DNA from: a virus
Lineage: Duplodnaviria; Heunggongvirae; Uroviricota; Caudoviricetes
DNA: 64,000 nucleotides
Strand: one strand, 5' to 3'
Virus record (IMG/VR): IMGVR_UViG_2645727901_000008
The notes under the pieces were generated by a model. It worked only from the letters and a program-made list of their open reading frames with translations. It ran no database searches and was not told the DNA's origin. Below, piece by piece: positions 9,801-39,404 of the stretch. A program made the translations under genes and the position numbers. The number at the start of each line of letters is the position of its first letter. Within the stretch, counting starts at the first letter, position 1.

Positions 9801-10641
9801 GGTGTTTACGCAATACCCATACGTCCACCACGGTATCTGTACCGGATTCGCTGAACGTACCAGAAGGCATACGATGTGCGCCCAAAAATTCCGCTTTACG
9901 GCTGACTTTATCGCGCAATTTTTTGTATTTCGTACCATCGGTCATGCCATTCGGCACCACCAATACAATTAGTCCACCAGGTTTAACCTTGTCGATCGTG
10001 CGCAACACAAAGTAATTGCCAACGTTCTTCTCGTTTGCATATGCCGGATCAAGCCCGGCAACGCCGGAACGCCCTTCACCAAACGGTACGTTACCAACAG
10101 CGTGGTCATACATTGCGTCTTTCGCCGCCAGCGCCTCAAACGCCCCGATATTCACATCGTCTTCCGGGTGCAAAAGCTGGTTTATTCGACCGGAAATCGG
10201 AGACAGTTCGGCGCTGGTCATTATCATGCCCTGCCGTTTTGTCTCCTGGAAAATACCTGTGCCCGCTGATGGTTCCAGTACGTGCCCACCATCAATACCG
10301 TAGTCAGCAAACAGATCCCATATACCTTCAGCCATAAACTGTGGCGTGTAGTATTCGTATTGGCTGCCCTCACCATCTGTCAGGCCGCCTTCACCGGTAT
10401 ACCCGGCAAGAATCTGACGTTGTTCGTCAGTTAATTTCGCCCCATCGAAGCCGGGCGGAAGGGAATTAAGAAGATTTACTGCGGCATTGTTTGCTGCCCG
10501 GCGTGTTTTCTGAATACTGACGCCATCGGCTTTCCTGACGCCAAAGGTCGCAACAGCACGTAATTTATGCAACCGACTAACAATTTCAATCAGTTCGCCT
10601 AAGCTGGAGGCTTCACTGATTGAATGAAGTAGTTTGTCCAA
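3802..10641 (-). CDS. darB: DarB-like antirestriction protein (N-terminal methyltransferase + helicase domains)
   Basis: 2279-aa ORF. SAM-binding-like VLEPSAGTGIF, Walker A GLGKTTTALA and DExH box VIADEGHNYRN are present. Size and architecture match P1 DarB (about 2255 aa, from memory). Start is TTG with SD gaggggg. Confidence 0.8.
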   Translation of the reverse strand: MDKLLHSISEASSLGELIEIVSRLHKLRAVATFGVRKADGVSIQKTRRAANNAAVNLLNSLPPGFDGAKLTDEQRQILAGYTGEGGLTDGEGSQYEYYTPQFMAEGIWDLFADYGIDGGHVLEPSAGTGIFQETKRQGMIMTSAELSPISGRINQLLHPEDDVNIGAFEALAAKDAMYDHAVGNVPFGEGRSGVAGLDPAYANEKNVGNYFVLRTIDKVKPGGLIVLVVPNGMTDGTKYKKLRDKVSRKAEFLGAHRMPSGTFSESGTDTVVDVWVLRKHPETFLEMIPDTDDATLKSANVLWDTFLKGKWFTTEGKRFVYGDMERTSFRNTLVVKKDGRVSNESMKTALSRRFESRINWDLLGVTTQAWQGAKVGDKRLVGGIWHEFDGLKWVKDATTKSSALDVNRYGVTTFGDLQIAFQSTNGILALSWDQISAIASDYPSVISDEVAAMIRFAGKQREKDRERVMRGALIGQLINKALDKRNLGENVDDVLADAARLAEAEIAKYGPPHAIKLNGIAEAGAKNWMTFTGNVKQDGSASDLLAGRLDVTDGAAGIDFTRPEQVVTHLFSDVALNPITLDDFREAFAGELPGDDDAALEYLAKFDDIAIDGYGCLLPMDRATSGDIATKTALLVGWRDASTGEQKANFERQLAKIEEKRIFTPLNKVTVNLNARWLDRRLIKEFLAEQGYDEFKYTEPDLKVEDGILVSPDDYEGKDGVFTGYQLRTVNGKNGNEFKKANNKDGFLNQLENYLNGIKPRGQNANEYLDKIAQLEISFNDWLRTHPQADQIARDYNDAFNGFIPFTHSDAPLGLEGISGKRIPLTYQNEEVRRLSEDGRGIMGFGTGLGKTTTALALEAYNFETGRTKRTCIVVPKAVYQNWYHEAQSFYSSDAFANMMFIGLDEVRDDSGNILTAPVLDENGEPRLDSNGQALTRNVVKESASAVIVQRMNMIPSSNWRTVIMTKEQFASIPLREETIEENSQQAVFNAVEMGRLDLASGKHRDAQKKNKIKDQAANTGTTKKQNIPYFEDMNFDSVIADEGHNYRNSFSAGREAGQLAYLPNPAVSKMARDMAVKAAYMMKRNNGRGVVMLTATPLVNSPIDAFNMLSTVIPQEEWMRMGIVTPDDFVRVFGKTATVQVQKISGEVEEKQGLVGFQNLDGLRGIFHRWTTLKTAADVGATVKIPDIVENTLQIPMTGEQEAIYEELRKRAQELSSKDALTVDENGHITNEKPDDFIFSIIRDMDKVAIDPDLYASAITFQFPVELADKVKAIADALPKVAGGKVADDVDEAEEDGAGGLVSTRASKVVKTTFSEHPSHVEIRAGIELEAEILKAIAAAGIDMQQVSHPIPPKYAALIENLREGLKNGKQIVFIDEKAQHQKLRRIIASALQMPEQEIGIINATTVSQAGGVKLKKVNKPTEPTPNKNGEYKEGAWETYYSKLAQYEDYLSAKNDAGLEGMEGIAADYNEGRTRIIICNKKAEVGINLHIGTTDIHHLTLPWTPASIDQRNGRGARVGSPQEKVNVHYYCGKGTFDDFRLDTLKRKKDWINMVMTSDMSEIANGDADDADERAIMLAANPEERRAIMSRQAQEREERLKLKALREANNALDNYLKAANAAGKDIGMMETELKSAMEQVEHYQRNLDDLIKAGTNRNGQKYVLEQLRDYRKRVRELRFAITRAKDADTVMKRSRGDLERAIKAGVLELDADVLQNPQEYVRTEKNILLHKGSHYRAIIDENHNTTAIVRVTAIDAERGGCTCRISWLDVASRYSRSPGTALFLPFNLIIESVTFEEGVAESRETAARGVQCHQLSTTLTRDQFYDAIRNGVMNVTAGKPSRVWGGGSAIKYWAYRTDDGQIALSSAYDGVIGQKIGRASDIAPERWIYPDGNDEALKREVAKIQASDNPLNVVDGEGFLQALYGYDYIQGMQAWGSQATMDDVSQEFENWMAGRGLSGRSLNKVTSEDILSLFRKPSGEGLESFWKTVVAYRLFQGRMKAFSNTDDIERMFNQVKAAKITAKIEKTRAALVAWRDALFEQYKSLSDADGWSALEQLANNGVDGAKLAIVQADNPLDSPAAQWIKVGAVINAFDEKHISKDDFADAVSVNRLVEMATRRARELKDGDYVNELPDALKSATWQDYVSLKNGGATESEIAERLEQAESKREEQAAVAEARADEAANDDYIIVVNDKPIRAKARVRGRWWSVSEDVGAVYLIADQPGSSTIRNAKDAIKKIGGRFWNFEANPVADVNFDRPAWMVSTRYSVDELRKIIADAA

Positions 10642-12439: not shown

Positions 12440-12787
12440 AGTTACGGCCTCACTAACAGGTTTAACAACCTGCTACCCGCTGCTAAACAGGTGGCAGGAC
12501 GTGACGGGGTTAGCAGACTGGCGTTAGTGAAACCAGCAGGCCGAAGCCTCCCCATCACGCCCCACCATAATTTGGGCGTAACGCGGTTTTACGGACACAA
12601 AAATACCGCAATATCGGATATCTGCGGTTGTCCGCACTAACATTCAGGCTGCTAAACCCGGTCGCAGAATTTGCTACGACGACATGAATATAAGCCTGAA
12701 AACATGGAAGATCAACTAAAAATTTCAGCAATAGATGACTTCAGTCGATGATGCAGATCATACATTCCGATTTAGAAACGGCAAATT

Positions 12788-16711: not shown

Positions 16712-16751
16712 GAATCACCGCGAATTGTTTCCAGTTTCGCGGCAGCATAAT

Positions 16752-19314: not shown

Positions 19315-19683
19315 TTACCCGGCATAACCGTTGGCTTTCACCCAGCTTATGGTCTGTTCTTTAGCCTGCTCCAACGTAAGGAACTCGCCAACATAGTTTG
19401 AGATCCCACGCAGCGCATCAATAAATTCCATTTGTGTGGACTTTGTGAACACACCGCCCAGGAAGTCAGTCACTATCTTAGGGACTTCATCTACAACAGG
19501 ATCAGTCTGTTGTTGCGGTTCCGCTGCCGGTTGCGCGGCAGTCCCCAGGCCCAATTTCAGCATCACATCAACAATCTGCTTACCAATGGTGACGCGTTGC
19601 AATACTGGCGCAGTTTTCTGCGCCTGCATTAGATCTGATAGCTCTTTACCTAATTTCAGGCGGTCTAAAACAGAGATGGTCAT
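19315..19683 (-). CDS. hypothetical protein
   Basis: 122-aa ORF whose start overlaps the stop of the 654-aa gene. Confidence 0.45.
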   Translation of the reverse strand: MTISVLDRLKLGKELSDLMQAQKTAPVLQRVTIGKQIVDVMLKLGLGTAAQPAAEPQQQTDPVVDEVPKIVTDFLGGVFTKSTQMEFIDALRGISNYVGEFLTLEQAKEQTISWVKANGYAG

Positions 19684-21614
19684 TAAGCACCTCCCTGCTG
19701 AATTTCAGCCAGAATGTTGATCAGGTAGTCAACTGCTGCACCCACAGTGGCTTCGTTCTCGTCGTATCGACCTGCACTGATTAGAGCATTTGCTGCTTCC
19801 TGTACATGATCAAGTTCAGTACTGATGACCGTCAGATCGCGGGGTGTAAACTGCTCCGGAACGGATTTCAGGTACTCCAGCGCTTTATCTGCCTCCTGAT
19901 CAGCTTCACTTGCTGATTCACCAGCTTCTTCTGGCTCCGGCTCCTGTTCTGTTGCTGGTTGTGGTTGTGATTCCGGATCAACCACATGCTCTGTTTTTAC
20001 TTCGATTGAATGATTTTGAAGGGCGTTATACACGTCCATAATGAAAAGGTTCTCCCCATCACCAAGTGGATACGCCACGTTTGGAAACGCTTTGCGGAAA
20101 AGAATTTTCACTTGCGCCTTGAATGTTTTCAGGTCACTGCCAAACAGGTCTACATAGCCATCAATATGTTTCGACATGCTGGACACAACCAATTGGCCTG
20201 CAAAATCTTTCAGCTCATCTTCATCAGGAAGATAGAGCAACTCGTACTGGCTGACTTCTTCATCTGTCAGTTTACGGTCATACGTAATGATACCGTGACG
20301 AGCATATTCGTAATACTGATCAGCCTGGTCAGGACGATCAATCACGGCTTTATTTCCATCCGGCACAGCACCAACACCAGCCGGGCGAGATTGAAGTGCA
20401 TAGTGGTATTTACCTACATCCTGGCTCTCTTGTTGTGATACTGGGTTCGTCTCGGGGTCTGTCTGTGGTGGTTCGGAGTCTTCCTGCTGGCCTGGTAACA
20501 CATCAACTTTATATTTATCTGCGTTATGCTCTCGGTAGGCTTTAAGTAATTTGGTTGCAGCATCTGCCAAACTGCCTCCTTTGACAGCACTGGCATCAAT
20601 ACTGAATTTACCTTCAGGTGCTACTATCGTAACGAAATTGTCACTGCCGGACGTGACATAATTAACTTCAGCGCCATTATCCAGCACTGTTTTTCCGTCA
20701 ATGGCAAGATTATGTTTTACATGTCGCAGCTGGTCACTAAACGCTCGCTCTTTCGTTTTTTCACCTTTAGCAGACAACAATTTATCGCGTTTTGCTTGTA
20801 ATTCCTCGTTGATGGCTTTCTGGGCATCAAGTTTTTTTTGCATCTCCGTAAGAGCAGCACGCTTTTCAGTCAGCCCACGTTGCGCAACTTCCACCTGATC
20901 AATCATTATTGACCGTTCTTCTGCCAGTTTATCTGCTTCATTGAGATAACTCTCAATATCTGCCTTCATTTTGTCCTGGCGCTCTTTTGCTTTCTTAAAT
21001 TTTTCGCTGTTACGCTCAATCAAATTAGATAGCGCCTGGCATACCTGGCTTAAAGAAACATCTCTCCCACCAATCGGGGCGACAACGTGAGTTACGTTAC
21101 GTTTATTAAGTAAAAACTGAAATGCAACAAGCTCGTCGTTACTCTTTATTTTTGCCCCGTCAGATGTTGGAGAGTGGAAAATTATGCTTGTACTCTGCCC
21201 GTCAGTAAGCGGTATCTGCGCGGTCAAAACAGGGATATTAGCTACCCGACGTACACGACCGATAATCGCACCACCAATACAATTACGTCCATTTTCATCG
21301 GCCCCGGCTTCATCAGTCCCTGCCATAATATTCGTACCATTCAGGCCACGATTCAGCGCACGGACGAAAGCTCGCATTGTTTGAGCTAACCGAATTCTGG
21401 TTGTAGTTATGGACTCAAACATAGCTTCGTCAGACACAACCAGAATTTCATTGCCCATATAGGCAAGCTCAATATCTTCTAAGGTCGCCGCCTCAAAAAT
21501 CAGGTCATCTTCGCTTAATTCTTCTGAAGACCAGCGACTTGGCATATAGCCGGGGATCGTATCAGCAAAAGTAGACTGAATATTAATTCGTAAAGGATTG
21601 TTAATCATGCTCAT
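19683..21614 (-). CDS. large acidic virion protein, DarA-like by size and position
   Basis: About 640 aa from ATG 21614; long coiled-coil and acidic segments; sits after the holin pair as darA does in P1 (from memory). No diagnostic motif. Confidence 0.4.
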   Translation of the reverse strand: MSMINNPLRINIQSTFADTIPGYMPSRWSSEELSEDDLIFEAATLEDIELAYMGNEILVVSDEAMFESITTTRIRLAQTMRAFVRALNRGLNGTNIMAGTDEAGADENGRNCIGGAIIGRVRRVANIPVLTAQIPLTDGQSTSIIFHSPTSDGAKIKSNDELVAFQFLLNKRNVTHVVAPIGGRDVSLSQVCQALSNLIERNSEKFKKAKERQDKMKADIESYLNEADKLAEERSIMIDQVEVAQRGLTEKRAALTEMQKKLDAQKAINEELQAKRDKLLSAKGEKTKERAFSDQLRHVKHNLAIDGKTVLDNGAEVNYVTSGSDNFVTIVAPEGKFSIDASAVKGGSLADAATKLLKAYREHNADKYKVDVLPGQQEDSEPPQTDPETNPVSQQESQDVGKYHYALQSRPAGVGAVPDGNKAVIDRPDQADQYYEYARHGIITYDRKLTDEEVSQYELLYLPDEDELKDFAGQLVVSSMSKHIDGYVDLFGSDLKTFKAQVKILFRKAFPNVAYPLGDGENLFIMDVYNALQNHSIEVKTEHVVDPESQPQPATEQEPEPEEAGESASEADQEADKALEYLKSVPEQFTPRDLTVISTELDHVQEAANALISAGRYDENEATVGAAVDYLINILAEIQQGGA

Positions 21615-22221
21615 CCTCCAGGCGCGCGATTTCTTCTTTAAGAGCACGTGTCTTAGCTACTTCCTGAGACAAGGCAGCTTTAACGTTACCCGTATCTTGC
21701 ATTACTTTGTCTGACTTGCTCTGGAGTTTAGACAGTTTGTCGTTAGCATTAGCGATATCTTCACGGAGTGCATCACGTGATTCTTTCGCTTCAGCTAATT
21801 TCTGAGCGTTAGATTTAACTCCCTGCCGCTTCTTATTTCCGTCATCAATATTTTTTGCTGCACGAGCAAGTTTTCGAGCTAATGACTTCTGGAAAGAAGT
21901 TGCTCCGCGATTAAATAAAGCCGCAAGAGATTGCCCCAAAGCCGACATTGTTTTTACTGGCTTGAACGGTACTGTTTTACCATTCAGTTTGATCCCAGAT
22001 ATATCACCGGTATCGTTAACCTGAACTTCCATTGTCTGTTCATCAATACCAATAAGGGTAAACGTGCGCGTCATGATCCCATCTTTCTTCCTGCCATTAC
22101 TTGCAGGGATCACCCTCGCTATCTTGTAACCACCTTTGCTGATTTCTTTGACGAGTTTTGCCAGCCCCTTTTCGTTTAACTCATCATAATTAAGAAGAAC
22201 ATAATTATTCTTATTTGACAT
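21601..22221 (-). CDS. hypothetical lysine-rich protein
   Basis: About 206 aa from ATG 22221, K/A-rich with a coiled-coil C-terminus; overlaps both neighbouring genes. Confidence 0.45.
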   Translation of the reverse strand: MSNKNNYVLLNYDELNEKGLAKLVKEISKGGYKIARVIPASNGRKKDGIMTRTFTLIGIDEQTMEVQVNDTGDISGIKLNGKTVPFKPVKTMSALGQSLAALFNRGATSFQKSLARKLARAAKNIDDGNKKRQGVKSNAQKLAEAKESRDALREDIANANDKLSKLQSKSDKVMQDTGNVKAALSQEVAKTRALKEEIARLEDEHD

Positions 22222-22657
22222 CCCAGTCTCCTTCACGCTTTTCGATCGTAAACTGGCGCTCTATGCAGTCATTGATAGGGAAAATGCGATAAAGCGGATT
22301 CAGTCGACAGTTACCGTTAGTCAATGTGACTTTCAGATCCCACTTCGTTGGCTCAAGATATTTCGTATCGATGAGCAAATACTCTTCTCTCTCACCGCGT
22401 TTTGAGGCGTCAACTGGTCGCGTTTTCCCTGAAATAACCACAGATGGATTTTTCAGGTCTTGCAACCAATATTCGATTTGAGCATTGCTGACCCAGCTTC
22501 GCTTAACACGTAGCGAAACAGGAAATGCTATAGCGGATTCTTTCACTACAGCGTCACCAATACTCAAAATCTCAACACTCTTGCGACGAAAAATGAAACG
22601 GTCAATGATGGCAACAAATGCCATGATAAAAATGAAATAATTTCCAAAGTTACCCAT
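22211..22657 (-). CDS. membrane protein, antiholin-like (LydB position)
   Basis: 148 aa with N-terminal TM helix YFIFIMAFVAIIDRFIF; second gene of the late operon after a holin-like gene. Confidence 0.4.
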   Translation of the reverse strand: MGNFGNYFIFIMAFVAIIDRFIFRRKSVEILSIGDAVVKESAIAFPVSLRVKRSWVSNAQIEYWLQDLKNPSVVISGKTRPVDASKRGEREEYLLIDTKYLEPTKWDLKVTLTNGNCRLNPLYRIFPINDCIERQFTIEKREGDWDVK

Positions 22658-22983
22658 TATTTCTCTCCACCTTTTCCCCCATTCGCTATTACGCTTAAGA
22701 GATTCAAGACGTTACTAGCTCTGGACTTCAAGCCCTGTAAAATTTCACTACCGTTGTTACTGGCAATCAGAACAACGCAGAAAATGATACCTTCAGGCCA
22801 TTCTTGGCTAACCGCCACCCCATACCCCGCAAGCCCGGCTGTTACCGCAGTAAACAATTCACTCGCAAGATTGAGCAGGGACGCAGAAATGCGCCCGTCT
22901 CTAACTCCGAGAAGGAATACGCCGGTTCCACTTAGTAGGGATGTTATGACTACTACAGCCAGATTTTCATAATCTGCAAACAT
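22657..22983 (-). CDS. holin-like membrane protein (LydA position)
   Basis: 108 aa with two or three hydrophobic helices; SD ggagggg; first gene after a late-type motif. Confidence 0.45.
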   Translation of the reverse strand: MFADYENLAVVVITSLLSGTGVFLLGVRDGRISASLLNLASELFTAVTAGLAGYGVAVSQEWPEGIIFCVVLIASNNGSEILQGLKSRASNVLNLLSVIANGGKGGEK

Positions 22984-23023
22984 ACCCCTCCAGAAATAAC
23001 ATCTAATGCGCCACTAACTTAGT

Positions 23024-23038
23024 CAGTTTGTTATTTCC
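23024..23038 (-). promoter_or_regulatory. late-promoter-like motif (cagtttgttatttcc)
   Basis: 14 of 15 identical to the copies at 28729 and 60401; 41-55 bp upstream of the holin-like gene. Confidence 0.45.
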
Positions 23039-23061
23039 TTACAGGACATCTTCTAGAATCT

Positions 23062-23084
23062 CCCCCCTTAACATACAAGGGGGG
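23062..23084 (+). promoter_or_regulatory. stem-loop sequestering the cin Shine-Dalgarno
   Basis: Perfect 8-bp stem cccccctt/aagggggg with a 7-nt loop; the 3' arm is the G-rich SD 4 nt before the cin ATG at 23089. Confidence 0.45.
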
Positions 23085-23088
23085 ACAT

Positions 23089-23649
23089 ATGCTTATTGGA
23101 TACATTCGCGTATCAACTAATGACCAAAACACCGCTTTACAACGAAACGCCCTTGAAAGCGCAGGATGTGAGCTAATTTTTGAGGATAAGGCGAGCGGCA
23201 AAAAGGCTGAACGCCCAGGGTTAAAAAAGGTTCTGCGTATTCTTTCCAGAGGTGACACCCTGGTCGTATGGAAGTTAGATCGTCTTGGGCGCAGCATGCG
23301 TCACTTGGTTGTGCTGGTGGAAGAGCTGCGTGACAGAGGCATTAACTTCCGGAGTCTCACTGACTCCATCGACACCAGTACACCAATGGGGCGCTTTTTC
23401 TTTCACGTAATGGGGGCGCTGGCAGAAATGGAACGTGAGCTTATCATTGAACGTACACGCGCTGGACTTGATGCAGCTCGCGCAGAAGGTCGTATAGGTG
23501 GGCGTCGGCCTAAATACCAAGAAGAAACATGGCAGCAAATGCGGCGATTGCTGGAGAAGGGCATCCCTCGTAAGCAAGTTGCAATCATCTATGATGTGGC
23601 TGTTTCCACGCTTTATAAGAAGTTTCCGGCATCATCATTTCAATCCTAA
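23089..23649 (+). CDS. cin: serine DNA invertase (Cin/Gin/Pin/Hin family)
   Basis: 186 aa; MLIGYIRVSTNDQNT ... VVWKLDRLGRSM ... FFFHVMGALAEMERELIIERT is near-identical in pattern to P1 Cin and e14 Pin as recalled; lies next to the invertible segment. Confidence 0.92.
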   Translation: MLIGYIRVSTNDQNTALQRNALESAGCELIFEDKASGKKAERPGLKKVLRILSRGDTLVVWKLDRLGRSMRHLVVLVEELRDRGINFRSLTDSIDTSTPMGRFFFHVMGALAEMERELIIERTRAGLDAARAEGRIGGRRPKYQEETWQQMRRLLEKGIPRKQVAIIYDVAVSTLYKKFPASSFQS

Positions 23650-23666
23650 ACCTTGGTTTAAGAGAA
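23641..23666. other. cix-like crossover site (left)
   Basis: 26-bp site caatcctaaaccttggtttaagagaa matches 19 of 26 positions of the hix/gix consensus as recalled; straddles the outer edge of the left inverted repeat. Confidence 0.6.
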
Positions 23667-23834
23667 CTCGGTACCAGCGGTGAAAAGATCCCCCTGTTGA
23701 GTACGGCTAACACATGGAGTGCGCGCCAGACTTTCAACGGCGGGATCACCGGGGCGCTGACAGGGAACGCCGACACCGCGACGAAATTGAAAACAGCTCG
23801 AACAATCAACGGGGTGGGATTTGATGGTTCTAAA
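23650..23834 (+). repeat. left 185-bp inverted repeat of the invertible segment
   Basis: Reverse complement of 26839..27023, identical by direct reading. Confidence 0.85.
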
Positions 23835-24761
23835 GATATTACACTGACTCCTGAAAATCTTGGCTTGACGGATATCGTGTCTCAAGCTGGTAACGCCGTT
23901 CAGCGTTCCGGCGATAAAATGACCGGAGAACTGAAAATTGGTACGGTGAATGCGCTTCGGATATTTGATGAAGCATTCGGTCTTATTTTCCGTCGTTCAG
24001 AAGATTTTCTTCATTTCATTCCGACGGCTGAAGGACAAGGCGAAAACGGTGATATCGGCCCATTAAGGCCATTCGCTATAAATCTGAGAACAGGTGCTAT
24101 ATCTGTCAGCCACGGGGCCAAAATTGAAGGAGGTCTAGCTATTGGTGCTACTGATAACGCACTGGGTGAAAACTCCATTGTTCTGGGAGATAACGACACC
24201 GGATTTAGGCAAGATGGAGATGGTATTATTAGCTTCTATTCAAATGGTTCGCGCATCGGACATATTGATGGGTTAGGATTATATCTTTATAAAGATATTG
24301 AATCTAATGGCAGCAATTTTAGATTAAAAAGTAATTACCGCCACCACATTACATTCGCCAACGAAGACGGAAGTATTCGTATGTTTTTGTGGAAAGATAA
24401 CGGTGGTGATGGTGTTCATATTAATAACGGTTCAGATGGTGGTGGTGACTTCATCTTTAAAAGGGATGGCGGTTTCACTCTGGGAAGTGGTGCGCAAGTC
24501 GCGTCTAGTGGCGATATTTATGGTTCAGTGTGGGAAAACAACTGGTTAAGCACATGGCTGCATAATCATGTCGTTCGGGATATTCGTCTTGGCAGCATTG
24601 AACATAAAAACGTATGGCGCGACTACGGCTTTGGCGATGCGTCAGGTTATGTTTTAACAGCCGCAATTAACAGCAATGCGGATGATATTGTCGACACTGT
24701 TGCCAGAAGGCCAATTCAGAAATTGATTGGGGGAATATGGTACAACGTGGGGAGTGTTTAA
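23650..24761 (+). CDS. alternative tail-fibre C-terminal segment (Sv'), silent in this orientation
   Basis: In-frame coding starts at the repeat edge with no own start; shares [22 protein letters not shown]... with the expressed fibre and ends in the fibre-tip motif [16 protein letters not shown]. Confidence 0.75.
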
Positions 24762-24762
24762 G

Positions 24763-25290
24763 ATGATGCACCTGAAAAATATTAAGGCCGGGAATCCGAA
24801 AACACCGGAACAATACCAGCTAACTAAAAAAGCGGGCGTGGTATGGCTCTTTTGCGAAGATGGCAAGAACTGGTATGAGGAACAAAAGAATTTTCAGCCA
24901 GACACCATAAAAATTGCTTACGATGAGAACAACATCATCGTTGCTGTCAGTAAAGACGTTTCAACTATTAATCCTGAAGGGCTAAGCATAGTTGAAGTTC
25001 CTGATATTACGGCAAATCGTCGCGCAGACAATAACGGAAAATGGATGTTTCTGGATGGTAAAGTAGTAAAGAGGGAATATACAGAACAGGAACTGCAACA
25101 ACAGGCCGAATCACAAAAGGCCGCGTTACTTTCCGAAGCAGAAAGCGTTATTCAGCCACTGGAACGCGCCGTCAGGCTGAATATGGCGACGGATGAGGAA
25201 CGCGCACGACTGGAGTCATGGGAACGCTACAGTGTTCTGGTCAGCCGTGTGGATACGGCAAATCCTGAATGGCCACAAAAGCCTGAATAA
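24763..25290 (+). CDS. tail-fibre assembly protein (U'), alternative copy
   Basis: [23 protein letters not shown]... parallels the minus-strand assembly gene; start overlaps the Sv' stop. Confidence 0.8.
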
Positions 25291-25298
25291 AAATTAAG

Positions 25299-25318
25299 GC
25301 CCGATATCGGGCCTTGTC
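25299..25318. terminator. bidirectional terminator between convergent assembly genes
   Basis: Palindrome aaggcccgatatcgggcctt flanked by A/T runs. Confidence 0.6.
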
Positions 25319-25852
25319 TCATTCAGGTTGTTCGGGAAACGTTACTGGCAGGCAGGAGGTGTCTGTGGATTCGACTTTCTGCGCATAGAGCATCCACTCT
25401 GTTAATTTTTGTTTATTCTCGTCGGAAATGATGCCCAGCCGTAGCTGTGAGTCCCATAGCTGGGTTTTATCCCTGACGAGCTGTAGCAGGCTTTGCTTTT
25501 CATTTTCCGCCTGCTGCCTCTGCTCTTCCTCGGTATAAGTTCGCTTTACCACTACGCCATCTTTGAACATCCATTTACCAGAAATATCAGCCCGGCGATT
25601 TGCTGTAATATCAGGAACCTCAACGACGCTTGCGCCTTCTGGATTAATTGCTGAAACATCCTTTTCAATACAAATAATAACGCCGTTGTGGTCATAGACC
25701 ATTTTCAACGTATCAGACTGGAAATTCTTTTGTTCCTCATACCAGTTTTTTCCATCCTCTGTATAAAGCCATTTGATGTTAAATTGTTTCGTTAGCTGGT
25801 ATTGCTCTTTTGTTTTAGGGTTGCCCGCTGTAATATTTTTTAAGTGCATCAT
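25319..25852 (-). CDS. tail-fibre assembly protein (U), expressed copy
   Basis: 177 aa, MMHLKNITAGNPKTKEQYQLTKQ...; directly downstream of the fibre gene. Confidence 0.85.
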   Translation of the reverse strand: MMHLKNITAGNPKTKEQYQLTKQFNIKWLYTEDGKNWYEEQKNFQSDTLKMVYDHNGVIICIEKDVSAINPEGASVVEVPDITANRRADISGKWMFKDGVVVKRTYTEEEQRQQAENEKQSLLQLVRDKTQLWDSQLRLGIISDENKQKLTEWMLYAQKVESTDTSCLPVTFPEQPE

Positions 25853-25854
25853 AA

Positions 25855-28239
25855 TTAAATGCTCCCCGCGTTATACCACGTCCCATTAATACAATACTGA
25901 ATTGGCCTTGCCTGTGTTGTATCAATTAATTCATCACGGTTTCCATTAACTGAACCCGTAACGACATAACCTGACCTGTCAGACCAGCCGGGACCATTCC
26001 ATGTCTGAACAGATGACAGACCGCCCAGGCGAATACCTGTAATAAACCTTGAGTTACATTCTGCCTGTGTATATGCACCAACATCCCCCGCAGAGGGTTT
26101 GCGGGTTGTGGTGTAAAACTCTGACCAGTTAGCTTCAAAGCCATAACCATCACGCGCTGAACGATAAAAGATACCGCCGTTCTTATAATTCACGCGGAAC
26201 TGTACAGCAGGGCAACTCCCCGCATTCATATTAAAGTGGAGGATTAATGTCGATGCACCACTGATATCTGCATCATAAACGCCGCTATTCCAGTTCCAGC
26301 CAACAGCTTTATCATGTGCAACCCTGCTTCCTGTTTGCCCTAAAGCAAATGCAGGCTGCTGGTTTTTCGTATTGTAGTCTCTTCGCCAGCCAGGAGCATA
26401 AGCATCACCATGATTAATATAAGTGAATTGAGCGTTAGTGATTCCGCCGCCGCTGGACGTACTCGGAGTAGTAACGCGTATGGTCATTGCGCCGCGAGTG
26501 CCAATAACTTCCACCACAGCACCTGCAAGACAAATATTTCCGCAACCTGTATCTGTAATGACCTTATTATTTGCATAAGCCCATGAGCCTTTGCACATCC
26601 AGTAAGGATGGTTAAATGCCCCCTGACTCTCCAGCCACGAAATAAATTGCGCAGTTGTCCAGATCTGACTATCGCCACCAATATCCACCCATGCGCTATA
26701 TGCGCGGCAGGCACCAATATTTTTGGTGAAGGTATCTTTTCCCGGAATATCTGCGCCGTTCTGGTTTTTCTGTAATGCTCCTGCGGCTAATTCTACGGTT
26801 TGTTCAAGATTTAAATCTTCCGCCGTTAGCTCAATGTTTTTAGAACCATCAAATCCCACCCCGTTGATTGTTCGAGCTGTTTTCAATTTCGTCGCGGTGT
26901 CGGCGTTCCCTGTCAGCGCCCCGGTGATCCCGCCGTTGAAAGTCTGGCGCGCACTCCATGTGTTAGCCGTACTCAACAGGGGGATCTTTTCACCGCTGGT
27001 ACCGAGTTCTCTTAAACCAAGGTATTGGATAACGGCCAGTGTGCTTGTTTTAGCCAGAATATCGCGACCGACTGACGTTAAATCAGTCTGCGCTACCGTA
27101 TCCTTATCAATGAAATAAGGCAGTTTGTTTGCACCAGTCGCAAGACCAGCAAGCGCGGTTAAAGTTGCATCCAGAGGCTGTTTGCCTGCCAGCGCATTTG
27201 TCATTGTTGTCGCAAAGTTCGGGTCATTGCCCAGTGCTGCTGCAAGCTCATTCAGGGTATCAAGAGCTTCAGGTGATGAGCCGATCAATGCAGAGATAGC
27301 AGCTCTTACATAAGCGGTCGTAGCAATCTGCGTGTTATTCGTACCCTGTGCAGCGGTAGGCGCAGTAGGTATTCCCGTTAATGCAGGGCTTGCTAAAGGC
27401 GCTTTGAGAGCCAGGGCATTGTTGATAGTTGTGCTGAAATTCGGGTCGTTATTGATCGCAGCCGCTATTTCTTTCAGCGTGTCCATCGTTCCCGGAGCAC
27501 CATTGATAAGCGCATTTATAGCAGCATAGACAAAGGCCGCATTTGCGATCTGTGTGTTGTTTGTACCGGGTTCAGGTGTTGGCGAAGTCGGCGTACCTGA
27601 CAGATGCGGACTATCGAGCGGAGCTTTTGTATCAACCAAATCATGGAGAGTTTTGACAGCCAGAGGTGTAGCCGCTTTTCTTTCTTCTGTACTGCTTATT
27701 TCATTAGAGAATTCGACACCAACAGCACGGTTAACTCGGTATTTAAGCACAATCATTTCTTTAGTCACAGCCGTTGCGCCGCTAGGCACGATAACTCGAC
27801 ATAATTCAATTTGATTCTGCCCAATAGTATTGTCCGTACGCACGTAAATTCTTGCAGCGCTGACAGAAGATGCGCTATCTACCTGTGTCGTTTTTACACC
27901 ATGTTCAAAATTGGCTTCCAGCACAATAATGTTGGTAGCCCCAGCCTTTACCGAGACAGTCACATCTTCTATTTGCTGAACGGATATCTGAACATTATTT
28001 ACATCTACTGAAGCAGCCCCTTTACCTTCTGAGTTTTCAGAAGTTATACGGACGCTCAACCCTGTGCCGGGAACTGGTTCAAATCCACAGTAAAAGCCAG
28101 GCAAAACAATATTTTTAAGTTTTCTGTTAAGAGCCGAACTACTATAGAGTTCGAAATATTGAACATCAGCAAGCAACGGCTGTGAGACACCAGAGGATAG
28201 TGTCATTATGTTGTTCGTTTTATCAGCCCCCATAATCAA
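25855..28239 (-). CDS. tail fibre protein (constant part + current variable part)
   Basis: 794 aa with repeated PALTGIPTAPTAAQGTNNTQIATTAYV-type fibre motifs and C-terminal tip ARPIQYCINGTWYNAGSI. The 3' third (25855..26838) lies inside the invertible segment. Confidence 0.9.
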   Translation of the reverse strand: MIMGADKTNNIMTLSSGVSQPLLADVQYFELYSSSALNRKLKNIVLPGFYCGFEPVPGTGLSVRITSENSEGKGAASVDVNNVQISVQQIEDVTVSVKAGATNIIVLEANFEHGVKTTQVDSASSVSAARIYVRTDNTIGQNQIELCRVIVPSGATAVTKEMIVLKYRVNRAVGVEFSNEISSTEERKAATPLAVKTLHDLVDTKAPLDSPHLSGTPTSPTPEPGTNNTQIANAAFVYAAINALINGAPGTMDTLKEIAAAINNDPNFSTTINNALALKAPLASPALTGIPTAPTAAQGTNNTQIATTAYVRAAISALIGSSPEALDTLNELAAALGNDPNFATTMTNALAGKQPLDATLTALAGLATGANKLPYFIDKDTVAQTDLTSVGRDILAKTSTLAVIQYLGLRELGTSGEKIPLLSTANTWSARQTFNGGITGALTGNADTATKLKTARTINGVGFDGSKNIELTAEDLNLEQTVELAAGALQKNQNGADIPGKDTFTKNIGACRAYSAWVDIGGDSQIWTTAQFISWLESQGAFNHPYWMCKGSWAYANNKVITDTGCGNICLAGAVVEVIGTRGAMTIRVTTPSTSSGGGITNAQFTYINHGDAYAPGWRRDYNTKNQQPAFALGQTGSRVAHDKAVGWNWNSGVYDADISGASTLILHFNMNAGSCPAVQFRVNYKNGGIFYRSARDGYGFEANWSEFYTTTRKPSAGDVGAYTQAECNSRFITGIRLGGLSSVQTWNGPGWSDRSGYVVTGSVNGNRDELIDTTQARPIQYCINGTWYNAGSI
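26839..27023 (-). repeat. right 185-bp inverted repeat of the invertible segment
   Basis: Identical to the reverse complement of 23650..23834; encodes residues about 406-467 of the fibre. Confidence 0.85.
27009..27034. other. cix-like crossover site (right)
   Basis: ttctcttaaaccaaggtattggataa matches 21 of 26 positions of the hixL consensus as recalled. Confidence 0.6.
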
Positions 28240-28682
28240 CCCTCAACTTGCTCGATTGTCATGAGAATACTGTAACGTTTACCTTTATAGAGGGTATCTT
28301 GCTGGGTGCAAAGCACACCAAAAGCCTGTTCCTCAGCATCAACAAGCACAAGCGTGTTAAAGTCGTAAGGCGTGTTATCCGGCATTCTTTCTTGAGGGAA
28401 GGCTGCATTGATAGTGATAATCCCATCCACACTGGACAATATCAGATCGGACACTGCAAACTGTTGAGCATCACTCAATTTAAAATCGAGTGGAATGTCA
28501 GCTATATTCCAGCCTCCTGCACCATTAGCAGTTACCAGACTAGATTTGCACCAATACGCCTTAGAGATAACAAAACGCGCACCTTTGCCGATCGCCGACT
28601 CAGCGCGGCGTGAATAATAGTAGGAAAGCAATTGCGCCTTATACAGGCGGTTACCATCTCTTGCCTTTAAATTTTCAGCCAT
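28236..28682 (-). CDS. tail protein upstream of the fibre gene (P1 R-like position)
   Basis: 148-aa ORF whose stop overlaps the fibre start; late-type motif upstream. Confidence 0.45.
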   Translation of the reverse strand: MAENLKARDGNRLYKAQLLSYYYSRRAESAIGKGARFVISKAYWCKSSLVTANGAGGWNIADIPLDFKLSDAQQFAVSDLILSSVDGIITINAAFPQERMPDNTPYDFNTLVLVDAEEQAFGVLCTQQDTLYKGKRYSILMTIEQVEG

Positions 28683-28728
28683 ACGAACATAGCCCCTTCA
28701 TAAGCAATGAACCAAAGGAGAGTATGCT

Positions 28729-28743
28729 CAGTTTGTGATTTCC
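28729..28743 (-). promoter_or_regulatory. late-promoter-like motif (cagtttgtgatttcc)
   Basis: 15-mer identical to 60401..60415; 47 bp upstream of the R-like gene start, with a -10-like CATACT 2 bp downstream in sense orientation. Confidence 0.5.
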
Positions 28744-28776
28744 GTTGTTCTTCCCCCAAATGCGGGGGAAGAATTA

Positions 28777-29622
28777 TTAAACAGGTTGAAGGTGGTAATC
28801 CAAAGGCCACGCATCGAGTGGGGTTACATCAAGATGTAATTGCTTTTCTGCCGTTCGGTTCGGTATGGCGTTAAGAGAAATATTGTCTACCTGGCAGGAG
28901 GTATCACTACGGGATAGCATATCAGCCATACTCTCAGTAACATAAACACCTTCAATTACCGAAACATCCGTAGACAAGCAATTTAGTATTTCTGCCACTT
29001 CAGGGAATACAGCACTAAGCCGAAACGAGACGCCATCAAAAACAATATGCAATGGCAACAAAGGGGCTATTACTGTTTCGAAGTCAGATAACAATTTCTG
29101 CACAGCGGCTTCTTTATCCTGCTCTCCATATGAGCGATATAGCTTGTTCTGATCAACAACGACCAGCCCCCTTGATGTCAGGAAGAACTCACCGAATTGA
29201 GCCTGTGCCGTAGGTATTTCTATTTCGGTCGCAAAATATGAACCATAGGGGTGTTTTTCTATATTTACAGGTGCATATAGCGGTTCCCAACTAACAGGAA
29301 TACAACCGAATTCACGCCAGAATGTCTGCTCAATAGGCAAGATAGTGCCTTTAAAGTGCACTTCATCTAAACGTTGCGCCAGCAGCATTGGCCTACGGGC
29401 CTTATCTTTTTCAGTGATAACGAAAAAACGCCCGTATTCAGCAATGCGGGCATCCATATCCTCACTGTCCATAGTGAAGAAGGATTTTCTGTTACTTATT
29501 CTTGTTAATATTGGTTCTACTGCCTCATTCCAGACATCTTGCAAAGCGTCTATAAAGGCACTCCAGAGATGGGAATCCTGTTTTACTTTAGTTAATCGTT
29601 CCTTAAGCCAATTATCTTTCAT
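28777..29622 (-). CDS. baseplate/tail protein (gpI-like position)
   Basis: 281 aa, last in a W-J-I gene order typical of P2/Mu baseplate modules. Position-based. Confidence 0.4.
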   Translation of the reverse strand: MKDNWLKERLTKVKQDSHLWSAFIDALQDVWNEAVEPILTRISNRKSFFTMDSEDMDARIAEYGRFFVITEKDKARRPMLLAQRLDEVHFKGTILPIEQTFWREFGCIPVSWEPLYAPVNIEKHPYGSYFATEIEIPTAQAQFGEFFLTSRGLVVVDQNKLYRSYGEQDKEAAVQKLLSDFETVIAPLLPLHIVFDGVSFRLSAVFPEVAEILNCLSTDVSVIEGVYVTESMADMLSRSDTSCQVDNISLNAIPNRTAEKQLHLDVTPLDAWPLDYHLQPV

Positions 29623-29632
29623 GCTAACCTCA

Positions 29633-31063
29633 TTACGGGTAAGAAATGCTGAACGTTGAAGATTTCACGTCAAGATAAATGAAGTCATTAAAGTAAACAG
29701 CATCTTTCATATTTTGTATTGTTATGTCGTAAGACAGAAACATGTCCAGAGACTCTATTACTCGCCAAATATCTTTAACTTTTACCTGTGCATAACATTG
29801 CTGGGAATCATCATCACTCTGTAGTAATAAACTGAATGATGACGAATCACGGCCAAAATTATCTTCCAACGCTGCTTTAATAGCATTTTGAGCATCGTCT
29901 ATCAGAACATTTTTACGTGCAATACCTATAAAATTTATAGTAAATGGCTGTTCATTTGTATCTACATACTCGAACCGCTTGTTCAACTCATTTGGAACAT
30001 TCTCTAGAGCTTTCAGTATTTCTGATTTTAGCTGAGCCTGGCTTACACCCGGCTTATGTCCGCAAAAGAAAATTTTGTTGATGTTTCGAACGTCAAACCC
30101 AGTTATTTTCTCTTGTAACGCTTCGCCCCAAACGTTCAACCATGAAGTTCCATGAACAACATTCTGAATGAATTGGCGATAATCACCGCCCCATATCACT
30201 TGTTCATCGTATGCAACATAATACTGAGCACGATTTCGAGTTTCTTCTGTAGTTTCCATACCACTACCACCGGTAATGATCGAATCTGTTTTAAACTCTA
30301 GTGACTCCACATATTGAGCGATATTTCCAGCCGGTTCTAACTTTTGTCCTTCAGCCAAAGTATAGTCGCCAAGGCTAGCCATAACATCGATTCGAACCTG
30401 ACAGCCTGCTGGAGGCATCATACCCATAGAACCATCACCAAACTTGACTCCAAGTTGTTCTGTAGGTTTATATGCCAATGAATAGTGCTTACTCTTGTCT
30501 CTGGACATTCTAAATAATGGGTTATATGTCCATTTTTCTTCTACGCCATCTGTAATAATATAAACATCCAGGCTAGAGACTTCTTTTGTTAACTCTCTGG
30601 AAAGCAACAATGTCAGAAATAAAGTTTCCTTCTCAATATCAAATGTAACGCTAACAGCTTCATGCTGTTTAGTTTCTACGCCAGAAACAGTTCCTCCAGC
30701 AGGAATTACAACACTGTTAATAATTGCCAAAGGTGTTTGGTCATTGGCAAGCAATTCAGCCCCGGCTGGCAACGTAATATCCCGATCAGTTTTATTGGTT
30801 ATAGACGTTGTTCCGTATGAAGCACTAACAAATCGCCCTACGTAGCTACGGTCTTCAGCAACCGCTAAAATACTTGAGCGGCGCGTAGCCGTTGAAATAA
30901 GTCCCTCAGTGAGGCCGCGGCTTGCAAATGTACGGGCAATATAAATAAGCTGTGATCCGAATATAGCGTGCATCTGCACAAACTGACTATTTACAAATCG
31001 TGACCACCATGTGTTTTCATTTAACTTGGCATTAAATTTGTCCAGTAATTCTGTAATCGTCAC
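29633..31063 (-). CDS. baseplate J-like protein
   Basis: 476 aa following a gp25/W-like gene; size and order as in Mu gp47 / P2 gpJ. Confidence 0.45.
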   Translation of the reverse strand: MTITELLDKFNAKLNENTWWSRFVNSQFVQMHAIFGSQLIYIARTFASRGLTEGLISTATRRSSILAVAEDRSYVGRFVSASYGTTSITNKTDRDITLPAGAELLANDQTPLAIINSVVIPAGGTVSGVETKQHEAVSVTFDIEKETLFLTLLLSRELTKEVSSLDVYIITDGVEEKWTYNPLFRMSRDKSKHYSLAYKPTEQLGVKFGDGSMGMMPPAGCQVRIDVMASLGDYTLAEGQKLEPAGNIAQYVESLEFKTDSIITGGSGMETTEETRNRAQYYVAYDEQVIWGGDYRQFIQNVVHGTSWLNVWGEALQEKITGFDVRNINKIFFCGHKPGVSQAQLKSEILKALENVPNELNKRFEYVDTNEQPFTINFIGIARKNVLIDDAQNAIKAALEDNFGRDSSSFSLLLQSDDDSQQCYAQVKVKDIWRVIESLDMFLSYDITIQNMKDAVYFNDFIYLDVKSSTFSISYP

Positions 31064-31434
31064 GCGCCCACCCCACTTGATTTCTGCATAACAATATCCA
31101 TGCTCCCACCTTTCGCATAAAAACTAATTAATAAAGAATCTTCAGAAATTGATGTGCAACGAATCCCCTGCACATCCAAACCTGGCAAGTCTTGTCGTAG
31201 TTTTTTCATCATTCTCCCTTCAATAGCCACTTCAACTATGTGCGAAGTTTCAGAGCCGAATGGTTCATGCTTAAATTCTTCCATTGGATTCCCCCAAGAG
31301 GGTAAACCATAAACACTCCCTTCAGGGGTTCGTAGCCACTCGTCAAGTCGGGCCATCCATGCTGCGGTACTTCCTTCTGCAATAATGACACCGCTCTCAT
31401 TCGTTTGAAGTCTTGCGTCTATTTCATAAAGCAT
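31060..31434 (-). CDS. baseplate wedge protein (gp25/W-like)
   Basis: 124 aa, overlaps the J-like gene; size and sequence flavour of GPW/gp25-type subunits. Confidence 0.45.
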   Translation of the reverse strand: MLYEIDARLQTNESGVIIAEGSTAAWMARLDEWLRTPEGSVYGLPSWGNPMEEFKHEPFGSETSHIVEVAIEGRMMKKLRQDLPGLDVQGIRCTSISEDSLLISFYAKGGSMDIVMQKSSGVGA

Positions 31435-31439
31435 CTGTA

Positions 31440-34400
31440 TTAATCCTCAAGCAGAGCATCCAGCGACGGGTCATTAATAGTTGTGCTAGCACGTGGTCGC
31501 GGTTGCGGCTGCGATGTTTTGACAACCTTATCCGGATCGCCTTTTGTATTGTTCTTGTTCACATTCAGAAGATCGTTCAGGATAGAGCAGATGTTATCCA
31601 GCGCCTTCAACATAGCAGGATCGTTATTTATAGTGTCAGTAGTTAATGGTTGTCTTATTCCGCTTCGTGCGAGATCTGTTACAGTAGGAAGCTGTGGTGG
31701 CAAAGCAAGAAAAGGTTCTTGCACGGCTGACGCAGAGCCAAATATGGCATTATTGGCTTCGTTTGATATACCTCTAATGCTATCTGCGGTTTGTTGAATA
31801 CCATTATTCAGCCAACTACCGGCGCTCTTGGTAAGCGGGCTAATAGCCCTGGCAATTGTTGAGTTCTGCCCAGTAGCCTGATAAACCAAATCATTAACAA
31901 TACCTGTGCCATCTACCCCACCAATAAGTTGTGAAACGTTATCGCCAATTGCAGGTAACACAGCAGAGCTAATACGTTTCAGACCTGTTAATGACGAGTC
32001 AAACAAAGAGCCAAGCACCCCCTTATCTTCACCATCAATTACCTTGTATCCATTGTCATAAACTGGAATCCCCCTTGAGTTTACAGAGATTTTTTCACTC
32101 TCACTTGCCGAAGAAACACCGGAGAGAAGATCCACTGAAGGCATATCGCGTTCAGCTTTTGGTCTTTTTTGTAAAGCGTCTCTTATATCAGTTACCTGGC
32201 TTGCTTTTTGAAATCCAAAAGATTTACCGGTTAAGCTGGATATCTTTTCAGTAAGAGCCTGATCCATTCCTTTCGCTTTTTCGGAAAGCGAAGATATGGA
32301 ACCAAACGAAGTCGCCGACGCAAAATCCTTAATCAGGCCAAGGTTTGTACCAGCAAGGCTGGTAGCCGCACCTCCAAATAAATTACCTACCCCGCTGTCA
32401 TTTATAGCGATTAATCTCTCAAGCAGACTTGATGGCGAGCCAGTATTAACATCAACAATCTCTGGATTAATCGGTTGCGATTGATTGCCTGTTTTTTGTG
32501 GCTTTTTGACTGCCTGGGCATGTTGTGCAACCTCAATTGGCTGTTGTGTTGCTGTCGGAACGGCATTCAAAACTGGTTGAGCTGGAGATTTTCCATTAGC
32601 ATATTTTACCTTGCGACCAACACTATATTGCGAATCGCGGGCAATTAGCTGACCACCATTTTCTTTCTGAATTTTATTAATCCGCGCCAATGTTTCGTCA
32701 GAGAATTGTCCCTCCCATCGACCAGTGTTAGTGTTAAATGCTCCAAGTGCATTCTTAATGAACTCATTATTAACTGCCGGATTTCCGCCTTCTTTCGTCG
32801 CAATTGCACGAACTAATTGCGTCATAACCTCTGGGTTGCTGACATCTATTTTTTCATTAGGCGATACACCAAGATATTTACTGACGTTATCAATATATTG
32901 GTTAGTATTGTTCTCATTTGGCGGTGCCCATTTTGAAATGATGCTGGATACCGTCTGTAACTTCTGATATCCCGCTGCAGCACTGGTGCCGTTGTAATAG
33001 CTGGAAACCTGGTTTGCCAGTGCCCTGATCCCTTCTTCAGGTGTGTTAAATCGCGCAAAACGTTGTTCACCCTTTGCATTTGGCGATTCCAGCGTCGCCC
33101 CTTCCTGGTTGGCAAAAACAAGATTACCGAGATTATTATTTCGGTAATTGCGGTTTTTAGCGTTGCTGCCGCCAATATTCAGATCCGCTGCAATGGTGTT
33201 GTTGGCAGGTGCACTAAATTCAGTTGGAGAAGTATACCCGTGCTCACCAACTCCATCCTCGCCATTACGCCCACCTTGTAATTGTTCACCTAGAGAATGA
33301 ATCGCATCGACAGTTTTTTTGGTGCCGTCTTCAACAGCTTTTTTTACTTGTTTCGTGTTTTCGTCAGTGGATAAAAATGTATCCTTAAGGCTACCAAAAA
33401 CAGATTTGGTGATATCTACCGCGCCGTTAACACCACGAGCAATATCTCCGGTATCAAAATTCTGAAGTTTTTCACCTGCTCTTTCAAATCCTAGCGCAGA
33501 AATTCCTTTCCCTATCAAGTTCGTTGCGCCCGACACCAAGCCACCCATATCGAGCACATTAGCTGTTGCGTAAGCCGTTTTTTGCTGTTCGGATACAGCA
33601 TCATCGTCACTTAAACCAAAGGCTGCCTTTTGCGCCTCTGTATCTGTGTAACCATCTATGGCGTCATATCCAGCCATTGCCAGCGAACCGATGATAGGGA
33701 CCGCTCTTGCCGCTGTGGATGCTGCTGATTTAACACCTATTTTTGCTGCACTTTTGAGGGCTACAGATTCAGTTTTTTTCTTTGCAATGACTTCGCCGGT
33801 TTTAATGGTGGCATCTTCAGCCACAACACCAGCTGACTTCACGGCCTTAGCAGTATTTTTTGTTTCCTTTGCAATCCCCTTTGATGTATCGCTGATAGTG
33901 CTTACATCTTTGGGTTTGCTGATCTTATTTTTAACTACTTTTGCTGCTCCGACACCAGTGCCAGCCGCAGCGCTACCGGCAGCAACTTTTTCGCCAGCGG
34001 AGAGTGCTTTTTTCCCAAGATTGCGGCCTTTCCTTTTCGATTTGTTCCGTTTATTTTTTCCCGTCTGATCACCAATATTGATTTTATTTCTTCTGCTTGC
34101 TCGATTTTTCCAGAGATCACTTAAGCCGAACTTATTTCCAGAAGACACTGATTTCCGAAGCTTAACTATCTCGTCAGAAACATTTTCCAGACCATCAATT
34201 ATTTTGTTGTCATTGGTCTGAAGGATTTTGGTTTGCTCTTCTACTGCTTGTGCGGATTTTGTCTCAACAGCGTTATTGAATGCTTTTGCAGATGTTGCTT
34301 TTTGAGAATTCACCGCCGCCGGATAAGTAATTACTGGTGATATCGCTTTCGAGGTTGATGTTTCTTTTTTCCCCTTTTCTACCAATTCTTTAAGAGATTC

Positions 34401-38912: not shown

Positions 38913-39404
38913 TTATTCTGCCCAGTTGTAAACAATACGCAGAGAAGGTTTAACAACAGCCGTTACGTCTTCGGAAGAGAAGTCCACGGCGTCGGAATAC
39001 ACTTTGCAGTGAGAATATGTGCGGATCAGACCTTTATGGTTACCGCTATTCGATTCAGCCGCCGCCTGTAAGGTAATTTCCAGATATTCTTTTCCGTATA
39101 CCATCTGTTTTACAGCGGCGAGAACTGCGCCTTCGATAGTTTCCGCGCATGTGACCTGAAATTCACCAGAGTTGCGTAATGGTCCGTGCTGGTTGAATTT
39201 CATGCCACCAGGGGCGTAATCCTCCACATCTTCACGTGTCATTTCTGGTAACTGAGCTGTACGAACTAGTACAGACAGATGTTCGTAACCCTTAATGGTC
39301 ATCCAATATTCAGAACCAATAAGTTTTTCGCCTGCAGCCAGGTTTTTATTAAACCGGGATTTTAGAAAGGCCATATCGGCTTTTGTATTTGCAAAACCGG
39401 ACAT
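38913..39404 (-). CDS. putative tail tube protein
   Basis: 163 aa, downstream of the sheath gene as in contractile-tail modules. Position and size only. Confidence 0.4.
   Translation of the reverse strand: MSGFANTKADMAFLKSRFNKNLAAGEKLIGSEYWMTIKGYEHLSVLVRTAQLPEMTREDVEDYAPGGMKFNQHGPLRNSGEFQVTCAETIEGAVLAAVKQMVYGKEYLEITLQAAAESNSGNHKGLIRTYSHCKVYSDAVDFSSEDVTAVVKPSLRIVYNWAE

Follow-up and report, generated by a model that had tools for sequence, protein, structure and literature searches.

We found that a stretch of 64,000 nucleotides from a tailed virus (Caudoviricetes; IMG/VR record IMGVR_UViG_2645727901_000008), referred to here at its full length as the window, carries an invertible tail-fibre segment together with the genes and sites needed to switch it. 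The initial annotation of this DNA had proposed a Cin-type segment, and indeed all of the elements are present and match the system of phages P1, P7 and D6. The evidence makes it very likely that they constitute a functional Cin/cix C-segment switch of a D6-like (P1-family) plasmid prophage. The sequence parts, their reading frames, the in-frame fusion created by inversion and the polymorphism in orientation among public records were all seen directly.

Crossover sites, invertase and fibre genes

The segment lies between inverted repeats that had been described as perfect over 185 bp. This was borne out: 23650-23834 is the exact reverse complement of 26839-27023, with the first mismatch at offset 185, and an extended repeat of 216 bp is 94% identical. 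The left arm (23650-23834) codes for a stretch of 61 amino acids that is common to both forms of the fibre, and the right arm (26839-27023) is its perfect partner. At the outer edges of these arms lie two 26-bp crossover sites. The left one, cixL (23641-23666, plus strand; CAATCCTAAACCTTGGTTTAAGAGAA), has its central TT at 23653-23654, and the right one, cixR (27007-27032; TTATCCAATACCTTGGTTTAAGAGAA on the minus strand), has its centre at 27019-27020. Each is identical at 26 of 26 positions to the corresponding site of P1, P7 and D6. The initial annotation had called these sites hix- or gix-like, at 19 and 21 of 26 positions. We reproduced both values with gix from the Mu record (19/26 for cixL and 21/26 for the reverse complement of 27007-27032), but the label understated what are true cix sites. 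A comparison with hixL gave 19-21/26 and carries no weight. Between the crossover dinucleotides (23653/54 and 27019/20) there are 3366 bp, in agreement with the length of about 3.37 kb given earlier.

A scan for the core of the site returned the two border sites at 0 and 1 mismatches and nothing else so close in or near the segment. Other core matches with one mismatch, at 39351, 40057 and 52678, are all distant from it, and no further credible cix sites were found in the window, where the core count was 30 against 33.7 expected by chance. Other arrangements were considered and rejected. A Min/mix multi-inversion system of the p15B type, which has six sites, does not agree with a core count at chance, two sites and two tips only. 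A shufflon of the R64 type, in which the tyrosine recombinase Rci acts on 19-bp sfx sites, is incompatible with a serine invertase and 26-bp cix sites. Two additional pairs of inverted repeats within the segment, I2 (24763-24831 / 25784-25852) and I3 (24707-24761 / 25855-25909), were also rejected as recombination sites; they reflect homology between the two chaperone genes at their 5' ends and between the two tips at their 3' ends, respectively.

The gene cin (23089-23649, plus strand) encodes a serine DNA invertase of 186 amino acids, with the Pfam domains Resolvase (E 5e-51) and HTH_7 (E 3e-18), and is intact. It had been said to abut the left site. The gene does lie at the left edge of the segment, but the two overlap, as the TAA stop codon (23647-23649) falls inside cixL, just as in P1. 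The protein is 97.8% identical to P1 Cin, 96.2% identical to P7 Cin and 77% identical to Mu Gin. Its best match among solved structures is the Gin structure 3uj3 (E 4e-89; residues 1-182 aligned), and it has Ser9 where the crystallised Gin mutant has Ala9. Inside the 5' part of cin, at the position of the annotated P1 enhancer, there is a sis-like recombinational enhancer (23107-23178) that is identical to those of P1, P7 and Mu at 68, 67 and 54 of 72 positions, respectively. It departs from the P1 enhancer at four positions, each of them the third of its codon. As in Mu, it contains two Fis-like 15-mers of the form G-N13-C, at its positions 4-18 and 53-67. These features suggest that 23107-23178 functions as a recombinational enhancer, with Fis predicted to bind it.

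The map of open reading frames (ORFs) and the homologies of their products agreed with the earlier claim of two convergent tip-plus-chaperone sets inside the segment. They also agreed that the minus-strand fibre is now joined to the tip at 25855, as the S gene runs from 28233 to 25855 and encodes 792 amino acids. The constant N-terminal part of the fibre, Sc (27020-28233, minus strand), lies outside the segment and probably begins with the ATG at 28233, in the context GAGGG-N6-ATG. At the amino-acid level Sc is 89.6% identical to its counterpart in pLD93-1 and about 60% identical to Sc of P1 and P7, and the stretch 26833-29500, which includes Sc, is 97.6% identical to D6 in nucleotides. The tip now expressed, Sv (25855-27019, minus strand), is of the Mu S' type and matches the Mu tail fibre S/S' structure (PDB 8ju3; E 4e-210; residues 68-388); it is 93.6% identical to P7 Sv, 85% identical to Mu S' and 68% identical to P1 Sv'. 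Its chaperone U (25319-25852, minus strand; Pfam Caudo_TAP, E 9e-37) is 97.7% identical to Mu U' and 96% identical to P1 U'.

On the opposite strand, the silent alternative C-terminal tip Sv' (23655-24761, plus strand) has no start codon of its own, is in frame with the repeat and is open from the crossover point onwards. It contains a Pfam gp37_trimer domain (E 5e-7), and its last 67 amino acids are similar to the C-termini of Mu S' and S. Its chaperone U' (24763-25290, plus strand; Pfam Caudo_TAP, E 1e-36) shares 84% identity with the U proteins of P1 and Mu, and 58% with U, the second chaperone of the segment. Both the silent tip and U' are free of frameshifts and stop codons. The middle of the silent tip had been noted as AT-rich; the GC content does dip to 35.5-39% at about 24150-24450, but this is a modest departure from the window mean of 46.4%. 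The unique part of Sv' (23835-24761) is 100% identical to the tips of pL9-1, pFORC64.1 and pLD93-1. Against 50,697 deposited phage records its best identity was 44%, whereas many prophage proteins of E. coli, Salmonella and Shigella annotated as "phage tail proteins" are 93-98% identical to it.

Both orientations in public records

Considering that inversion should join the constant part of the fibre to the silent tip, as the initial annotation had predicted, we reversed 23654-27019 in silico, at the central TT. The flipped product was in frame and 773 amino acids long from the ATG. Exact-sequence look-ups identified the present 792-residue S protein as WP_072132716.1 and the predicted 773-residue S' protein as HCN8041310.1. 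The latter is encoded on a contig from a separate E. coli assembly, GCA_025292635.1, where the order is gp16, R, S' and U', followed by convergent U and a tip of the Mu S' type. This contig aligned with the flipped window without gaps over all 10,030 bp, at 98.75% identity, whereas its alignment with the unflipped window was broken at the repeat.

Junction-specific searches of a plasmid collection, one for each orientation, gave a similar picture. The orientation of the window was found in CP047663, CP023732 and CP100671 at 98.8-99.8% identity and in CP043260 at 95.2%. The flipped orientation was found in CP142045, CP114131 and CP148548 at 99.0% identity or more, and for CP142045 the Prokaryotic Genome Annotation Pipeline (PGAP) gives the Sc-Sv' fibre as intact, with U' after it. 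Both states of the segment thus occur in nature, with breakpoints at the cix-bounded repeat. Together, the exact flipped protein, the collinear flipped contig and the presence of both orientations among plasmid records mean that switching in nature is well supported.

Proposed mechanism and competing explanations

Our model of the switch borrows from P1, Mu and Hin for the activity of Cin, catalysis at the central dinucleotide, dependence on Fis and the enhancer, use of a promoter outside the segment and the effect on host range. Minus-strand transcription of the fibre operon, R and then S, would come from a promoter that stays in place on the right-hand side of the segment. Translation of S would start in Sc (28233-27020), pass cixR and the 185-bp repeat, and run on into the tip that adjoins them. 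At present this is Sv of the Mu S' type, with chaperone U following. By analogy with the related systems, Cin would bind both inverted 26-bp cix sites and, with the Fis-bound enhancer inside cin, would exchange strands at the central TT/AA (23653/54 and 27019/20), inverting 3366 bp. After inversion, Sc would be in frame with Sv', followed by U', to yield the 773-residue fibre with the other receptor-binding tip. As in the model systems, this tip may alter the host range of part of the phage progeny. A hairpin between the convergent chaperone genes would block read-through into the antisense set. The C-segment of P1 has been described as a host-range switch inverted by Cin (PMC6906374).

Candidates for the transcription signals of this model are present in the window. 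Between the convergent chaperone genes lies a terminator-like palindromic hairpin (25296-25315; AAGGCCCGATATCGGGCCTT) with 8 pairs and A/T runs on both sides, and in phage D108 terminators are annotated at the equivalent place. This hairpin is therefore a probable terminator. The first gene of the fibre operon is a homologue of R (28236-28682, minus strand), a protein of tail-fibre structure or assembly; it matches D6_36, annotated as 'similar to P1 gene R', and the family Phage_P1_tail_fiber_R is a precomputed Pfam hit on an identical gene. Upstream of R and outside the segment, in the place of the late promoter LPs of P1 and P7, we found a candidate late-promoter box (28728-28741, minus strand; motif AAATCACAAACTGA). 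The late-promoter box of P1, AAGTTACTT-N-TACAAT, is absent upstream of R, and this differing, recurrent motif is found there instead. A second copy (23023-23036) lies upstream of the holin gene, where P1 has LPdar. In the form AAAT[A/C]ACAAACTGA the motif occurs seven times in the window, always on the minus strand, where 2.7 occurrences would be expected by chance; the other five are at 16751, 47512, 60400, 445 and 34558. It may represent a D6-type late-promoter (Lpa) box.

Several points weigh against reading these parts as a working Cin switch. A single consensus sequence cannot show inversion of this particular copy. As for the expression of cin, the region upstream of the gene is identical to that of D6 and unrelated to that of P1 and P7, including the annotated P1 cin promoters, and a promoter scan did not find a strong sigma-70 match directly upstream of cin. 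The late-promoter assignment draws only on position and on a recurring motif. Finally, inversion by RecA across the perfect 185-bp repeat would give an identical product, so the orientations found in databases are no proof of Cin.

The divergent region upstream of cin and the lack of a strong promoter match would both be expected of a fossil or locked switch, in which the parts are present and the rate of inversion is negligible, for example with cin silent from its D6-type upstream region and the silent tip a relic. Impaired switches have been described in some P1-like plasmids (PMC6906374), which we counted in favour of this explanation. However, no damage is seen here in Cin, the enhancer or either cix site, the silent tip and U' have stayed open, the region upstream of cin is the very one found in phage D6, and the exact flipped fusion protein is known from another near-identical element. 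We consider a locked switch very unlikely.

It is also conceivable that inversion occurs mainly through recombination by the host RecA across the 185-bp repeats, rather than through Cin at cix. A perfect repeat of this length is sufficient for RecA-dependent exchange, and a crossover anywhere in the identical arms leaves the same sequence as one at cix, a difference to which database comparison is blind. Yet the dedicated invertase, the exact cix sites and the conserved enhancer have all been kept, and P7, D6 and pLD93-1 hold the same architecture with imperfect arms (5-8 mismatches). Inversion in P1 and Mu is known to need Cin or Gin (Iida et al. 1982, cited in PMC6906374), which we counted against a leading role for RecA. 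We give RecA as the main agent only a very slim chance.

Lastly, it can hardly be credited that an assembly artefact created the repeat or the orientation that the segment has in the window: short-read assemblies often break at such repeats, and the flipped contig of GCA_025292635.1 ends inside the second tip, but the region as a whole matches a 178.7-kb contig at 100% identity, and phages P1, P7 and D6, as well as several complete plasmid records, show the same architecture. A functional Cin/cix switch remains the reading that we favour.

Relationship to known elements and genomic surroundings

The mechanism of switching by such segments has been textbook knowledge since the 1980s, and the Cin/cix switch described here is of a type already known, as is the phage family that carries it, with near-identical copies in public records. 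Its closest phage relative is D6 (MF356679), a P1-family plasmid prophage. D6 shares 97.8% nucleotide identity over 95% of the length of the 24.7-kb stretch 28300-53000, and on either side of the segment the nucleotide identity to D6 is 97-99%. Judged from these identities, the element is a D6-like (P1-family) plasmid prophage and not P1 proper. The two have in common the gene order cin-cixL-S'-U'-U-S-cixR-R, the backbone, exact cix sites and a similar arm length, and the D6 record already annotates cin, cixL, cixR, S, U, U' and S' in this order. They differ in the tips. In the D6 record the set with the Mu S'-type tip, which is 87% identical, adjoins cin and is silent; the expressed tip of D6 has no counterpart here, and the silent tip of the window is absent from D6.

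The dimensions of the segment vary within the family. Here, 3366 bp separate the crossovers and the arms are perfect over 185 bp; in pL9-1 the distance is also 3366 bp, with perfect arms of 183 bp. The corresponding values are 4265 bp for D6 (arms of about 170-190 bp, 8 mismatches), 4005 bp for pLD93-1 (about 155-185 bp, 6 mismatches), 4007 bp for P7 (about 145 bp, 5 mismatches) and 4256 bp for P1 (about 600 bp). P1 and P7 (AF234172 and AF503408) resemble the window in their exact cix sites, in Cin (96-98%), in the enhancer (67-68/72), in the cin stop codon inside cixL and in having a constant Sc with two invertible tip and chaperone sets; in contrast, Sc is only about 60% identical in amino acids, and differences extend to the lysis genes in the flank and to the sequence upstream of cin. 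The G segment of Mu (Gin/gix) shares the mechanism and gene logic, and its S' and U' are 85% and 97.7% identical to the expressed tip and chaperone, whereas Gin is 77% identical, gix matches at 19-21/26 and, with respect to the fibre operon, the invertase is on the opposite side. The repeats of Mu are 34 bp long.

The segment itself is closest to those of the IncY P1-like plasmids pL9-1 (CP142045), CP114131 and CP148548, at 99.0-99.8% over all 3388 bp. These three differ from the window in their P1-type backbone and in having the segment in the opposite orientation, with Sc joined to the tip that is silent here. In pL9-1, which we mapped in detail, identity falls to about 95% for cin and to about 91% for Sc. 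After in silico flipping, pL9-1 is 99.8-99.9% identical to the window inside the segment, and the near-identical stretch begins at about 23400 and ends at about 27200. From about 27300 onwards the window is D6-like again, which places the joints near 23400-23700 and 27200-27300. Relative to D6, therefore, the segment appears from these alignments to have been replaced by a variant of IncY P1-like plasmids such as pL9-1. We rejected an exchange of cassettes exactly at cix: the left joint includes cixL, and the right joint is 200-300 bp outside cixR. Given the position of the right joint, the replacement fits ordinary mosaicism by homologous recombination, not a clean swap mediated by Cin. We also observed that the two repeat arms match each other exactly in this element, as they do in pL9-1, yet those of D6, P1 and P7 are about 9-10% divergent from them. 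This suggests either that one arm was recently converted by the other or that the segment variant itself arose recently.

A 14.4-kb stretch around the S gene in the E. coli contig JHTE01000033.1 is 100% identical to 19855-34233 of the window. This contig is 178.7 kb long, roughly double the length of a D6-like genome (about 90 kb), and the S gene is reported there once. Because of this single copy, the contig is probably not a simple dimer of a D6-like genome; it could be a cointegrate or a larger replicon.

To the left of cin are homologues of the LydA holin, LydB, a short protein with a DarA_N domain and DarA, and to the right of the segment are homologues of R and gp16. Two neighbouring minus-strand ORFs, 21601-22236 and 19683-21647, each have a DarA_N domain. 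The first encodes 211 amino acids and is the counterpart of a D6 gene annotated as similar to P1 hdf; the second (minus strand) encodes 654 amino acids and is the DarA homologue. A Pfam search of the large neighbouring ORFs gave domains for only one, a 2279-residue ORF (3802-10641 of the window, minus strand) with SNF2-related and helicase C-terminal domains. From its size and its place upstream of the DarA-domain genes, this is a putative DarB-type anti-restriction protein like that of P1. Rfam placed a C4 antisense RNA (70 bits) at 12487-12572 and its a1/b1 target (51.5 bits) at 12641-12693, both on the minus strand, and these RNA matches mark the region as a P1-type ImmI immunity region. 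A search for tRNA genes found none.

The points that are new are modest: the silent tip has no close relatives among deposited phages, and the segment variant differs from that of D6. We see roughly even chances for a broader interpretation, in which Sv' (23835-24761) would be a receptor-binding tip carried by no characterised phage, conferring on D6- and P1-like phage-plasmids a host range that could not be foreseen from P1 or from Mu S/S', and in which the C-segment would have moved as a cassette between the IncY P1 and D6 lineages by recombination in or next to conserved sequences close to cix. The choice of bacteria open to injection by the phage-plasmid would be set by a switch of this kind. 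Phage-plasmids related to P1 and D6 are common among E. coli and Salmonella and are able to carry resistance genes, and knowing the tips between which they alternate helps to predict their spread.

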